Source: Paraspadella gotoi (lineage: Eukaryota; Animalia; Chaetognatha). From it: 64,000 nt of DNA. The DNA lies in assembly GCA_051294375.1 (NCBI GenBank), contig CM119267.1:9449709-9513708 (forward strand), read 5' to 3'. Made by a program: the position numbers and the translations under genes. The notes below the pieces were generated by a model that saw nothing but the letters and a program-made list of their open reading frames with translations, was not told the origin of the DNA and did no database searches. This document shows, piece by piece, positions 1 through 59,443 of this stretch (positions within the stretch are counted from its first letter, which is position 1; every line of letters starts with the position of its first letter).

Positions 1-267
1 TTGATTGACGCTTACATGGCTTACATCATGGTCACGGGAGTCGTCCAATTTCTTTACTGCTGCTTGGTCGGGACGTTTCCTTTCAACTCCTTTTTGTCGG
101 GGTTCATCTCGTGCGTGGGTTCCTTCATCTTGGCCGCCTGCCTACGCATCCAGAGCAACCCACAAAACAAGTCAGATTTTCACCACATCGGACCCGAACG
201 CGCCTTCGCCGATTTCCTTTTCGCTAGCATTGTCCTGCACTTAGTCGTGATGAACTTCATCGGTTAA
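1..267 (+). CDS. DAD1: DAD1 / OST2 oligosaccharyltransferase subunit (3' part; 5' end outside window)
   Basis: Translation [59 protein letters not shown] is the DAD1 family signature; stop TAA at 265-267. Confidence 0.96.
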
Positions 268-422
268 ATTTCGCTTTTGGAACTCTCGTTCAACTGAATT
301 TTTTTTTTAATGGCAGAAATAATCGGTGTATATAGTGTATGACTCAATGCATTCCTTATTATGTTTTCCTAGTCGTTTTTATATAAAATAAGGCTTTAAA
401 ATATCACTTTTATTTCTCAAAG

Positions 423-54900: not shown

Positions 54901-57900
54901 TTGTTGAAAATAAGTTTTAAAATGATTTTAAATAAAGTTTACTTTTTTAGTGCGTTTCCTGGAACTACGACGGAAGCAGGTTTGTTACTTCTTGCAAAGA
55001 TGGACAAATCAGGATCATTAATCCAAGAAATGGCGAAGTTCTCAAGGTGATTTGTTTTAACGCAAATATTATGAAAGAAAATGGTTAGGAATCCCCAAAG
55101 CGACATATAACAATAAACGTATTGCTTTGCTCTTCAGCAATTCAAGGGTCACGGCGGAGGTACAAAAAGCACCCAACTGACATTCCTTAAAAATGGCATG
55201 GTGTTTTCCACCGGTTTTTCTAAAATGTCTGAGCGCGAATACGCTCTCTGGGACCCGCAAAAGGGTATTTTCAAAGTTATGGAGACAATCGACCAGAGCA
55301 ACGGCGTCCTCTTCCACTACTATGACGTCGACACTGGAATGATTTATCTAATTGGGAAGGTCAGTATTTTTAAAAATTATTGATTGAAATAGTTTTAAAC
55401 GGTACCAATATTTTTATCTCGCCAGACGAGCGATATGATATAATCGTTTAGAATTACTTCTTTGTGCGGTCATCGTCATCGTAATGCTTTTATACAATTG
55501 AAAATTGTAAAAGTGTCTAACTATAGGAAGCGAAAAATTTAGATATAGCTTCTCGTCATCAGGATGTTTTAGAATCACAAGTTTCATATTGCTACACGCA
55601 TTTGCTTGTTTTAATTACAAAACAATTTTTATATATGTCGCTCTCTTTTTTTTTTCCGTCACTGCCCCTCTACTCTAGCGGGAGCCGACCAAATTTAAAT
55701 TTTAATGGGAACAGCATTAAACGAATCTATTATTATTATTAGTTATTGTGTTAACATTTTTTTTTTGCAAAAATGTTTTAACTATGAGTAATTAAAATTA
55801 TTATATTGCTATATAATGTTTCAATTACTATTATATGGCAACAGCCGGGTTGCCTGTGATGCCCATTGGGATGGGGTATCTCACTGTTGGCTTTGGGGGC
55901 TTCAGACCCTCAGTGACGCCTCTAGTCACTGGCGCGGTTACCTTAAAACGGTCTCGCTTTGCCAACGCAGAGGGAAGTCGTTAGGACTGTGGATGGAACA
56001 CTACGAAATGGATTTGGCTGAAGGATGGTGGACGTAAGGCGGTGTGAATATACCGCCACAATTACATCAATCTATTACAACAATCGTTTATTTTTTTTCC
56101 CCGGATTTTTTCATTAATTTTCTGTGATAGTAATGCCTGGCGACATCACTATACTTTAAGATTTGTTATATTTATTTTATATTATATTTTAATTTAATAC
56201 ATATGATACTAAATTAGTAAGAGTATTTTTTTAAAATATTTTGTGGATATCTTGTGCCGTCTTAAAGCAGTCATGGATATATAAAAATAAAAATTGATAT
56301 GAAAATTGTCCTTTTCTTACATCTTTTAATCAAATATGCGAGCTATTTAAGGTTTGTTTTTCTGTTTGTCCATGATTAACTCAGTCTCAAATTATGGTTA
56401 AATTACCCTCACATCGACGTATTTGTGATGATTTTCAGGGTGATAGTGTGGTGCGATATTACGAGATAAACGACGATCTCCCTTTTGTCCACTACATTGC
56501 CATGTATCAATCGGGTGCGCCGCAACGGGGCGCCGGATTCATGCCCAAGCGCGGCTGTGATCCTTCCATTTGTGAAATTACCAGGTTTTTAATATTTCCA
56601 TCTAATTCAAATTTTATTTACAGCTGGTAGATTTGGTCCTTGAAATTTAAATGTGCTCTAGTACCATATGAAATGTTGCTCGAGTTAATTATTTGAACGG
56701 TTTTCAGGTTTTTCAAGCTTCATACAAAAGGCTTAGTCGAAGTGATCCCAATGATATGTCCGCGGAAGGTAAACGCTGTAAGTTCTCGTTCCATGCATGG
56801 TTTCACAATAAGACGTACTTTCACCAAATCTGCCTAATGCACTCGAGACAATTACTATAACATTGTATTTTTAGGTTAGTTTTCTGTCACTTCAATTAGT
56901 CAGTTAAAGTAGGTCTTTTTAACGACTAATCATTATGAGTTAGCATTTTTATAGTTGCATCGTGTAAATTTTTTTTTCTCATTTATTTCGCTATTTTATC
57001 AATTGTCGTATAATCACTACACTTTATACAAAATGTAGGCACCAGCTTATTCTTAACATTTTCTAACAAATAGATATTTTTTATTGGCCTTTCTCGTTCG
57101 AAATTTCTATTTCCAACTTTCGCTTTCTTCAGTCTGAAATATTCCAAGAAGATCTCTATCCCGATACCATCGGTGACTCTCCCGCGGTTCAAGCCGACGA
57201 ATGGTTCGCCGGTGAGTCGCGACAATGCAGATTGCATCCATTACGTTTGTAATATGTTCGTTTTCTTTACCTTTTTCAAGTAAATCATAATCATGATGGC
57301 GAGTTTTTATTCTTAGTCTTTTATTTAAATATTTAACGCAGTCTACTGAAAATTTTTTAAAGGCAAAGACGTCAATCCTATTCTAATTTCAATGAAAGAC
57401 AAAATGGCGCCGTCGGTTACTCCCAAGATTCAAGTAGCGGCACCAAAACCAAATCTGCTGGCATCTCTTGCCGGTGGTCCAAGCAAGGATAAGCCAGACG
57501 AGAAAAAGTAATTTTATAAAAACCGTATAATTTGACTTCAAAAATGTTTTTTAAAGTATTCAAAATTGATTTTTGTTTTGAATTTGAAGCGTCGCCGCGA
57601 AGAACGCCGTCAACGCGGCGCCATCTGCTCCTGCGCCCGCCTCCGCCGTCGTGCCCTCTCCAACCCCAAAGCCACCCGCTCGACAACACACCTCCCCTAA
57701 GACGAATGGTGGTTCTCAGGGATTTGATACGACTATCAAAAATCCTCCCCCCTCCGGCCCTTCGGTAAGCAACATTTTTTTTTGGTTTCTTTGCACGCCG
57801 CCCGCCGTTACCGCCTGCCTTTATTTCCCGCGAATTTTATACTGCATCAAACTTATTCTAGTATATGGCTCTAGGTTGTTCCGTTAATAATCGATAATTT

Positions 57901-59443
57901 CGCGCACATTTTAATTATTAGGGAAAGAGGTTTGGCATTCGGGCTTTTTTTTTTTAAGTGTTTATTTTCTGAGCAAATTACTCATCTACTAAGTTAACTT
58001 CATCGAATTTTTTTTCTTTGGCTCTCTCTCTCTCTTTCCTTTCCCCTTTTTTTACATTTTTTTTTCCTATCGCACATCTCACGAAAAACTCGTCTTCCTG
58101 GCGTCACTTCTTGATCCTTGCGCGCGCACTCGCTTGACGGCACACTGTCATGACGTTCGCTTTTCCGCGCGGCGTCGTTGGGGGTGACTTTTCTTTTCTG
58201 TGTTACCCCTTTGAACGCGCCCCGGTTCGCGCGCGCAGAAGGAGGAATACGATCACCTTTTGGTCGAACTAAAAAATCTCAAGATGATCGTGATGGGTCA
58301 CGAGCGCCGAATTCGCAACATGGAGTTCAAGCTGGGCGAGCGAGAACGCGAGCTCGACAGGATCAAGTCCCAACGGGAGAAAGACCCGGACCCCACCCAG
58401 AAATGACTCGAGCGATAAATTTTTATCAAATAAAAAGTACCTTGTGGAAGAGCGTATTAAATGTGCTACTTTTAAAGTTGGGGTTGTGAAGTCTTGTTTA
58501 ATCGTGAATGGAATGAATGACCACGTCTTTTTTTGCAGACTTTTAAATCCTTACCGGCAGATTTTGCGCAGTGCAGTGGAACCTTAAGATCCGTATCACT
58601 ATCAGCTTATCTTCTCAATTATTATGCGACGAGGATTTTTTCACTAGCATAATAGTTATAAATATGTTTTTTCGACAACCTTCCAGTCAACTTTTTTTTT
58701 AGCATTTTAACAATGAGAGGCCTCTCGTCGAATAATAATTATTTTAAGAGTTTTCAAAATAAATTTCGTTTCACGGCGTGTTAACACGTTCTAATCATAC
58801 ATAAACATCGCCGACTCTCAACAGCAACGCATTTAAATTATTTTTGCGGTCCTTTGGATTTTGACTCTGAATTATTTTTTGAGATCACAGCTGCTTATTT
58901 TGCGCTAGAGAATAAATTCAATAATAACTGTATTTGTTATAAGTTTCGTAATTTATACTATATTTAACGTTTAAAATGGATTACAACCTAGACAAGAGAG
59001 TTTAACGAAATTCCGCACGATTTTTGCCGTTTTCATAGCAAGTCCATACATTTTTTCATTAACGATATCGTTCTCTAGCTTCAAAAATTTGCTGTTGTGT
59101 GTAGAATCAGTAGTTGTCTTGTAGATTTTGACCAGATTTTGCTGATACATACTTCGTCGTCTTTTAATTTATTTATTTATTTTTTTTTTTCCAGAAGGAG
59201 GAATTCGAAGAGTTGGTGTCGGAGATCAAAAAGCTCAAGGTCGTCGTTTTGAGGCAGGAAAAGAAAATCGAAACTTTGGAAACGCGACTCACTGAATACG
59301 ATGCCAAGCTCAAGGAGGCCACCACCTTGAAGATCGGTGCGTGAAATTTTACCGAAGCTCAACTTTAAATTTAGCTGTGCATATTATTAAATTTTGCTTT
59401 TATTTTAGTTAACGGAAGTCGCACAGATGAACAAGATGCTTAA
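45911..59443 (+). CDS. Coronin (type I-like), about 13 exons, 7.1-kb first coding intron (46106-53220), two alternative coiled-coil terminal exons
   Basis: [112 protein letters not shown]; terminal exons 58239-58406 or 59195-59336 plus 59409-59443. Confidence 0.93.
46349..46820 (+). mobile_element. HINE/DINE-1-like element, copy 1
   Basis: 5' tttttatctcgcc and 3' gtctggcgagatcactatactttaaaagattt (subterminal inverted repeats, T-rich ends); the shared body (tacaattgaaaa, tagatatagctt, gtttcatat, ttttccggattttt) recurs at 55411-56164. Confidence 0.65.
47196..47350. mobile_element. MITE, copy 2 of the 17628 family, opposite orientation
   Basis: ggtaagattttactttcgccgaccgggttttggcgtctttt ... ccctaaccccggtcggcgatagtaaaattaacc. 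Confidence 0.75.
47400..48895. repeat. 31-bp tandem satellite, array 1 (about 48 units)
   Basis: Consensus TAGAGACTGGTCTTTGGCGCTAAACTAAATG; homogeneous core about 48000-48800 with a degenerate left edge. Confidence 0.97.
49893..51502. repeat. 31-bp tandem satellite, array 2 (about 52 units)
   Basis: Same family with variants GCTGAAATAAAGGTACAG, GCTGAAATAAATGTGG and GCTGAACTAAATGTAGAG; degenerate right edge. Confidence 0.97.
52540..52860 (-). mobile_element. Possible decayed non-LTR retrotransposon fragment
   Basis: GC-richer island; the translation [27 protein letters not shown] loosely resembles the post-RT '..IRK.VK.WL.LP....P...GGLG' segment of non-LTR elements. Confidence 0.3.
55411..56164 (+). 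mobile_element. HINE/DINE-1-like element, copy 2, carrying nested insertions
   Basis: 5' tttttatctcgccagacg and 3' gcctggcgacatcactatactttaagattt; contains the 55676-55820 repeat and the 55834-56060 LTR-like element. Confidence 0.65.
55834..56060 (+). mobile_element. Solo-LTR-like structured repeat, copy 2
   Basis: TATGGC..CCGCCACA flanked by a 4-bp TSD ATTA (55830-55833 / 56061-56064); reverse-complement homolog of 9322-9571. Confidence 0.65.

Follow-up and report, generated by a model that had tools for sequence, protein, structure and literature searches.

A run of fifteen same-strand genes in Paraspadella gotoi as probable chaetognath spliced-leader operons

Gene content and layout

The window, i.e., the whole stretch of 64,000 nucleotides analysed from the genome of Paraspadella gotoi (GCA_051294375.1, contig CM119267.1), harbors 15 genes and one orphan open reading frame (ORF). 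The exon models place all of them head to tail on the + strand, from DAD1 to coronin, as the original prediction had described. X1 in the following lines is the RNA run discussed below.

1..267, +, DAD1, 3' part, cut by the window start (PF02109, E 2e-41)
423..1779, +, TFIIB, 4 exons, 320 aa (PF08271, PF00382; exon model; intron 1 spliced in X1)
1997..2989, +, DEGS1 sphingolipid desaturase, intronless, 330 aa (PF08557, PF00487; homologs)
3883..11710, +, GBF1-type Sec7 ARF exchange factor, 12 exons, 1935 aa (PF01369, PF12783; introns spliced in X1)
12182..13788, +, calumenin/reticulocalbin-type EF-hand protein, 6 exons, 314 aa (EF-hand matches; exon model)
14176..14847, +, MPV17/PMP22 family protein, intronless (PF04117)
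16780..17557, +, Rab GTPase (PF00071; Rab matches; exon model), labelled RAB24 in the original prediction
18234..23311, +, CACHD1, 3 exons, 1642 aa (PDB match CACHD1, E 6e-254; exon model)
24984..25871, +, EXOSC2/RRP4, intronless (PF21266, PF14382)
25938..32526, +, TTC37/SKI3, 14 exons, 1681 aa (PDB match SKI3, E 3e-94; exon model)
32779..34216, +, single-RRM protein, tentatively BOULE/DAZL-like, 422 aa (PF00076)
34429..34980, +, orphan ORF, 183 aa, transcribed (X1 cover)
36337..41078, +, PIWIL2/Ago3-type PIWI protein, 8 exons, 1030 aa (top PDB matches PIWIL2, E 4e-81; 7 introns spliced in X1)
42340..43186, +, group XII secretory phospholipase A2 (PLA2), 2 exons (PF06951)
43372..44214, +, divergent TBP-family protein, intronless, 280 aa (PF00352 twice; TBP matches, E 1e-16)
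44537..44651, +, coronin 5' UTR exon, cis-spliced to 45813
45911..59443, +, coronin, last gene of the run (PF08953 (DUF1899), WD40; the 3' end at 59443 is that of the original prediction)
~61.0-61.3 kb, -, CH-domain gene, which bounds the same-strand run on the right

The Sec7 gene, before which no acceptor was located, is presumably GBF1, and we take the EF-hand protein to be of the calumenin/reticulocalbin family. The name BOULE/DAZL-like is tentative, as DAZL gives the longest single-stretch match, while other RRM proteins score higher overall. The orphan ORF has no Pfam match, and a word search for relatives was empty up to E 1. A single relative, P0121, was found among 1.84 billion representatives (E 4e-4, 34% over 148 aa), and the ORF is likely a lineage-restricted gene. 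The first coding intron of coronin measures 7.1 kb and contains a 31-bp satellite. The nearest relatives of DEGS1 show 77-81% identity, whilst named animals reach at most 70%, with hemichordates best. Xenoturbella, which the hemichordate matches had first suggested, was discarded in view of the chaetognath-type leader described below. A quick tree of 54 sequences, in which the window was joined by 53 of the 120 matches listed, grouped the window with five proteins only and did not resolve its placement by phylum; among the matches, support for the phylum from a named chaetognath protein was absent.

Internal stops are absent from the 13 complete gene models, the DAD1 3' part and the orphan ORF, and the introns are of the GT/GC..AG type. 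The gaps between stop and ATG measure 155, 217, 893, 471, 387, 1932, 676, 1672, 66, 252, 212, 1356, 1261, 185 and 1696 nt, every value being identical to that listed before. If strands were independent, 15 genes would lie on a single strand with p = 6e-5. Since the window start cuts DAD1, the run may extend further to the left. Two of the gaps contain MITE-like inserts:

17627..17813, no strand, MITE-like insert in the Rab-CACHD1 gap, with 34-nt inverted arms
23540..24176, no strand, MITE-like insert in the CACHD1-EXOSC2 gap, with 57-nt inverted arms (84% complementary)

The first of these has another copy near 47317-47355, and its high RNA depth comes from other copies.

RNA data and acceptor sites

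The RNA evidence consists of the assembled contigs of run X1, from one study, which carry no single-molecule, cap, poly(A) or strand information. X1 was taken as RNA because of its spliced joints and because introns receive little or no depth in repeat-free bins. Its contigs were matched at 99%; positions 24880-25095, 32535-32733 and 36272-36476 have no cover, which is not a sign of silence. In two runs from other organisms (X2 and X3, with coding stretches ~80% alike), none of the eight pieces listed for each bridged neighboring genes.

Ten acceptor-like sites upstream of start codons had been proposed. All ten are indeed AGs; however, for 6985 of 9853 gap positions (71%), the 60 nt upstream contain an AG preceded by 20 nt that are at least 60% pyrimidine. 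Against this background, acceptor-like AGs mean little from sequence alone. The sites with informative contig boundaries, including one outside that list, are:

421..422, +, acceptor AG directly before the TFIIB ATG; X1 record 1 runs from 423 (703/712 letters placed)
1927..1928, +, acceptor AG before DEGS1; X1 record 2 begins exactly at 1929
32732..32733, +, acceptor AG before the BOULE/DAZL-like gene; X1 record 2 begins exactly at 32734
43349..43350, +, acceptor AG before the TBP-family gene; X1 record 5 begins at 43349, on the AG
44535..44536, +, coronin trans-splice acceptor AG; loose end TTGTTTAAA before 44537; the preceding contig (record 5) ends on its A, 44535

Thus, three of the ten proposed AGs (422, 1928 and 32733) are followed by exact contig starts, whereas contigs run unbroken through 12130, 25934 and 42328. 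The AGs at 421..422, 1927..1928 and 32732..32733 are likely the trans-splice sites of TFIIB, DEGS1 and the BOULE/DAZL-like gene, respectively; the TFIIB contig carries nine unaligned letters before 423. At AG 36283, the preceding contig ends at 36271, 12 nt before the G, and the AGs at 18054 and 24954 have no informative X1 cover. Together with coronin, four contigs start one base after an AG (423, 1929, 32734 and 44537), against an AG density of 0.045 in the gaps, as expected for a leader that ends in A, not G. With such a leader, the contig start at 43349 would be expected 2 nt further downstream. None of the cis joints listed for X1 (15/46 and 15/24) leads into one of the ten AGs. Beyond 18141, the CACHD1 contig carries another 11 letters, whose origin may be genomic, leader or a mini-exon starting at 18055.

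Leader letters at coronin

The best-supported acceptor is the AG at 44535-44536, which is absent from the ten sites proposed. The coronin contig starts after it with nine non-genomic letters, TTGTTTAAA, and of the 26 chaetognath leaders in PMC2481426 Table 3, 25 terminate in exactly these letters. Leader forms 2/4 and 3.1/3.2 differ at the letter just before the shared nine (PMC2481426 Table 3), and an assembly graph would therefore break at nine letters. In the window, the 9-mer has three copies on the + strand, none of which is followed by GT; hence, the window offers no cis donor that could account for it. The full leader has 36 nt and starts with GGAAGC (PMC2481426 Table 3), and its pattern does not occur within the window. 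The letters were read at this one site (44537), over 9 nt, in one run of one study, among the loose contig ends examined (6/12 in the right-hand and 18/257 in the left-hand part of the comparison). Another loose end of nine letters, at 41890, is not leader-like. Downstream of the leader letters, the loose contig end behind 44653 is sequence from 45815, which marks the cis splice in the 5' UTR. A metagenome scan with the DEGS1 alignment returned 80 loci, none above 69% identity; the 9-mer was found in the first 400 nt of 0/80, and a second gene of the window in 0/80.

RNA across the gene junctions

X1 contigs bridge or abut 10 of the 15 gene junctions, the others being TFIIB-DEGS1, MPV17-Rab, Rab-CACHD1, CACHD1-EXOSC2 and TTC37-BOULE. 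At two further junctions, the distance from stop to AG is 149 and 207 nt. Neighbors are thus on the same strand with transcripts <250 bp apart, as operons are defined in PMC12460157, with three junctions outstanding. The longest bridge is a contig of 11,427 nt, which equals the exon model of DEGS1-GBF1-calumenin-MPV17 (11,426 nt plus one letter): all 16 of 16 introns are removed and all three intergenic gaps are retained. The MPV17 contig (X1 record 2) continues to 16036, 1189 nt beyond the stop. EXOSC2 and TTC37, 66 nt apart, are spanned by one spliced contig (25096-32534).

At other junctions, the upstream RNA appears to stop at the next acceptor. This is directly seen for the TBP-like contig, which ends at 44535, the A of the acceptor. 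The PLA2 contig probably ends at ~43347-43350, at the next AG. The DAD1 contig presumably reaches ~422-424, at AG 422, as bin arithmetic shows that a depth of 570 needs ~424 nt of cover. AATAAA or ATTAAA is found within 45 nt upstream at none of seven such sites, which carries little weight, as a background of 28 in 11,766 nt predicts less than one match there; TTC37 has an AATAAA at 32561, 35 nt past its stop.

Interpretation and number of units

Taken together, the same-strand genes probably form spliced-leader operons of the chaetognath type. X1 contigs extend from one gene as far as the acceptor AG of the next or beyond it, and the coronin RNA carries the 3' end of the chaetognath spliced leader at AG 44535-44536. 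The original reading as spliced-leader operons is supported by the leader end at an unpaired AG, the contig starts after AGs and the intron-free bridging contigs. Its suggestion of an undescribed operon system, in contrast, is not upheld: the leader end matches that of chaetognaths, a phylum for which leader-resolved operons have been published. The array would thus belong to a known chaetognath system and not represent a new mechanism.

The likeliest layout has two or three units. One would comprise DAD1-MPV17, with six or more genes and an open left side, and a second EXOSC2-coronin, with eight ORFs; Rab and CACHD1 would be joined to either unit or be separate. Each of the two blocks has one unbridged junction, and the three middle junctions contain inserted repeats. 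Operons here are possibly longer than the published record of nine genes.

An unlikely, though not far-fetched, arrangement is a single transcription unit of ~60 kb, resolved by the chaetognath leader, that would unite the 15 genes and the orphan (at least 16 ORFs) and might also include genes beyond DAD1 on the left. Trans-splicing itself would make the upstream 3' ends, and the unit would include a captured germline block and the exosome-SKI pair. There is no strand switch within 59 kb, and without inserted repeats the middle gaps (MPV17-Rab, Rab-CACHD1 and CACHD1-EXOSC2) shrink to ~1400, 490 and 1035 nt, sizes similar to those of two gaps that RNA does bridge (893 and 1261 nt). Also consistent with such a unit are the extension of the MPV17 contig and the length of the CACHD1 contig, which would reach 24047 if colinear. 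However, no X1 contig was seen across any of the three middle gaps (20001-24879 lies outside the compared stretch), and published chaetognath operons reach nine genes at most (PMC12460157), a length that this unit, if true, would nearly double. The germline block of such a unit consists of the BOULE/DAZL-like gene, the lineage-restricted orphan, PIWIL2 and the divergent TBP.

Less probable still is that the genes are trans-spliced but mostly monocistronic, with promoters inside the 3' ends of preceding genes and the AG-ending RNA being outron merged by the assembler. Approximately half of the genes of P. gotoi are trans-spliced, whilst only 18% are in operons (PMC12460157); moreover, an excised outron by definition ends in AG, and contigs cannot separate overlapping RNAs. 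Yet, there is little space in some of the gaps (66, 155 and 185 nt), and contigs run unbroken from coding sequence to AG. In a published chaetognath operon, only 3 nt separate the poly(A) site from the acceptor, which was presented as ruling out re-initiation. An ordinary compact cluster, in which the AGs would be acceptors of 5' UTR introns and the nine letters an assembly artefact, is barely credible: AGs of this kind are frequent in the gaps, coronin does have a 5' UTR intron and the loose end at 41890 is unlike the leader, but TTGTTTAAA matches the published leader end exactly, at an AG and in a window without a donor for it, four contigs begin one base after an AG, and no listed cis joint enters the proposed AGs.

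Comparison with known systems

With the chaetognaths Spadella cephaloptera and Flaccisagitta enflata (PMC2481426) and with P. gotoi itself (PMC12460157), the array has the leader 3' end in common, and chaetognath leaders resemble those of no other phylum (PMC2481426). In P. gotoi, operons comprise 18% of genes, with a bias to housekeeping and germline functions (PMC12460157). Like the array, chaetognath operons combine unrelated same-strand genes of these two classes, and the upstream RNA ends a few bases from the next acceptor. The array differs in its run of 15-16 genes, probably divided into two or three units, compared with a published maximum of nine with gaps <250 bp. The array also suggests that applying a cut-off of 250 bp to gene models may break up long chaetognath operons at long 3' UTRs or MITE insertions. 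In a literature search for the longest or largest operon, only PMC12460157 was relevant, and no animal-wide length record is claimed.

Nematode SL2 operons and those of Oikopleura (PMC7986045, PMC1488885, PMC11067885) are likewise polycistronic, leader-resolved and composed of housekeeping and germline genes, with intercistronic spacers of ~100 nt in nematodes and 23-30 nt in Oikopleura. The array is not of the nematode SL2 type, as AATAAA/ATTAAA is missing at 7/7 sites and the leader end is that of chaetognaths, which lack the dedicated SL2 used by nematodes (PMC12460157).

A possible parallel in the 3' ends is with the operons of Ciona intestinalis without intercistronic DNA (PMC1488885), in which the upstream 3' end lies at the acceptor AG, and AATAAA/ATTAAA is missing just upstream in 16/18 cases. 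Ciona belongs to another phylum and has another leader, and its operons are mostly dicistronic, with six or seven genes at most. In the array, the 3' ends are deduced from contig ends without visible poly(A): 44535 was seen, ~43347-43350 and ~422-424 are probable, and 36271 falls 12 nt short of the acceptor. The array supplies base-exact junctions for the question raised for Ciona whether trans-splicing makes the upstream 3' end. With its chain of six to eight or more genes, the array would also allow a test of whether neighboring mRNAs are then mutually exclusive, a further question from Ciona.

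Gene content and organization of the array

According to the exon models, all genes from DAD1 through coronin are located on the plus strand, and all 15 stop-to-ATG gaps of the original prediction were reproduced. If strand independence is assumed, the probability of 15 genes sharing one strand is 6e-5. The run is closed near 61 kb by a minus-strand CH-domain gene, which we take to be smoothelin-like:

60600-63100, minus strand: convergent calponin-homology gene (PF00307; CH domain C-terminal)

The kinds of genes are supported by family matches across the array. The identities of CACHD1, SKI3 and PIWIL2 are firm; the names RAB24, BOULE, GBF1, calumenin and TBPL1 are tentative at the subfamily level. 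Coding exons of 2.5-4.5 kb at 4535-8218, 18825-23311 and 25938-28400, together with four intronless genes, suggest heavy intron loss in the lineage. A GC-AG intron is present in TTC37 at 30670-30759. The first coding intron of coronin contains a 31-bp satellite at 47472-48817 (~44 copies) and 49894-51470 (~51 copies), broken by repeat fragments that also occur at 16040-16318. Other repeats are:

17627-17813; 23540-24176; 39161-39820; 9320-9571 with 55834-56062: MITE-like or dispersed repeats of several families, one with GGGTTA-type repeats

RNA continuity between genes

The public run X1 contains 0.84 of the sampled words from 1-10000. It was aligned, together with X2 and X3 (runs of other organisms), to 1-20000 with likeness from 80%, and by itself to 24880-44879 with likeness from 99%. 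X1 contigs omit introns at GT..AG, and in repeat-free bins exon-only cover accounts for the depth, with little or no intron remainder. Thus, X1 behaves as RNA, though it is not recorded as such. The repeat copy at 9.3-9.6 kb showed a very high RNA depth, contributed by other copies.

RNA continuity, which for a contig over two genes means neither a single molecule nor a precursor, was assigned at 10 of the 15 junctions. Four are crossed by one spliced contig (DEGS1-GBF1, GBF1-calumenin, calumenin-MPV17 and EXOSC2-TTC37), and a record of 11,427 nt corresponds to the DEGS1 to MPV17 model with 16 introns removed and three gaps retained. At two others (BOULE-orphan and PIWI-PLA2), overlapping contigs were deduced from bin depths. 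At the last four, the upstream contig stops at or near the next acceptor; the ends of the TBP-like contig (44535) and the orphan contig (36271, 12 nt short of the acceptor G) were read directly, and those of PLA2 (~43347-43350) and DAD1 (~422-424) were estimated from depth. Regarding the other five junctions, the downstream contig begins at an AG 149 and 207 nt past the stop in TFIIB-DEGS1 and TTC37-BOULE, respectively, and the gaps of MPV17-Rab, Rab-CACHD1 and CACHD1-EXOSC2 each carry one inserted repeat. A block of 6 ORFs and another of 8 can be made out, with a single unbridged junction in either; one unit of at least 16 ORFs seems unlikely.

Evidence for a spliced leader

One contig starts at 44537, directly after AG 44535-44536, preceded by nine non-genomic letters, TTGTTTAAA, and is spliced at its other end to the coronin exon at 45813. 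This 9-mer occurs three times on the plus strand of the window, never before GT, and constitutes the 3' end of 25 of the 26 chaetognath leaders in Table 3 of PMC2481426. Besides PMC2481426, a full-text search for the 9-mer plus "spliced leader" retrieved a single methods paper on kinetoplastids. The letter just ahead of the terminal nine distinguishes leader forms 2 and 4 from 3.1 and 3.2 (PMC2481426), and two variants differing there would break the assembly graph at nine letters. Similarly, 703 of the 712 letters of the TFIIB contig aligned from 423, and nine further letters, known by count and not by sequence (18 of 257 loose ends, i.e., unaligned contig letters, were listed), precede AG/ATG. 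Positions 1929 and 32734 are likewise exact contig starts; such starts after the G would be explained by a leader ending in A. The exception is a start at 43349, on the A of AG, which does not fit a leader ending in A.

The acceptor-like sites noted earlier before many ATGs are real AGs but unremarkable, as 6985 of 9853 gap positions have an acceptor-like AG within 60 nt upstream. G was never the next base after the RNA-indicated leader acceptors 422, 1928, 32733, 43350 and 44536 (n = 5, a small sample), whereas it follows 25 of 39 cis acceptors. Upstream of PLA2G12, a clean acceptor (tcttacag) and a donor (cg/gtaagt) lie 33 nt apart at 41669-41702. Possibly, this is a 5' UTR mini-exon, in which case some transcripts would use AG 42328 for cis-splicing; its joint was absent among the 15 of 24 X1 joints listed for 24880-44879.

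Mechanism

The feature is real, and the proposed SL-operon mechanism is very likely right, considering the leader end at 44537, the contig starts after AGs and the RNA continuity. Few promoters would give read-through transcription across genes, with the leader being added at unpaired AGs. Contigs ending on an acceptor fit operons without intercistronic DNA, where the upstream 3' end is made by trans-splicing, as proposed in PMC1488885; in a chaetognath operon, 3 nt separate poly(A) site and acceptor (PMC2481426). AATAAA/ATTAAA was found in the 45 nt upstream at none of seven sites (background, 28 in 11,766 nt), which agrees weakly with such operons. Alternatively, RNA ending in AG could be an outron excised from transcripts of internal promoters; it would likewise end in AG, and contigs cannot separate the two, but we consider this explanation quite improbable.

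The orphan ORF

The orphan ORF is transcribed, as it is covered by X1. It has no Pfam match, and a word search found no relatives. Among 1.84 billion representatives searched, one relative, P0121, was detected (E 4e-4), with 34% identity over 148 residues and a C-terminal motif in common. Likely, it is a lineage-restricted gene; conceivably, the region is a long BOULE 3' UTR. A contig ends at 34224 and the next starts at 34446, with AG at both, and bin depths fit a second path lacking ~223 nt, orphan ATG included. An allelic deletion, a non-GT intron and a second acceptor are candidate explanations.

Functional groupings and comparison with published operons

EXOSC2/RRP4, a protein of the exosome cap, and TTC37/SKI3, of the SKI complex, act together in the decay of cytoplasmic RNA. 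Their genes, at 24984-32526, are 66 nt apart and bridged by one contig; they are a functionally linked pair within the array. At 32779-44214, a BOULE/DAZL-like RRM gene, the orphan, a PIWIL2-type PIWI gene and, beyond PLA2G12, a divergent TBP-family gene may make up a germline block, which would match the germline bias published for chaetognath operons.

In P. gotoi, leaders were reported on 10,197 of 21,072 genes, and 18% of genes are in operons, with germline bias and no operon-specific leader (PMC12460157). The array is assigned to the chaetognaths on the basis of its leader end. Rather than the "undescribed operon system" originally suggested, it is a further instance of a chaetognath system already in print, and its genes may already be in the published operon table (PMC12460157). 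The list of phyla with such systems is confirmed by PMC2776167 and PMC11067885, the available parts of which give no operon length record. Among the papers searched, which included few subscription titles, none was found to describe a chaetognath operon with 15 genes. As the mechanism is published, the novelty left is operon length: the longest operon described in P. gotoi comprises nine genes under a 250-bp rule (PMC12460157), and Ciona operons reach a maximum of six to seven genes (PMC7986045), compared with the blocks of 6 and 8 ORFs or, less probably, a single unit of 16 or more here.
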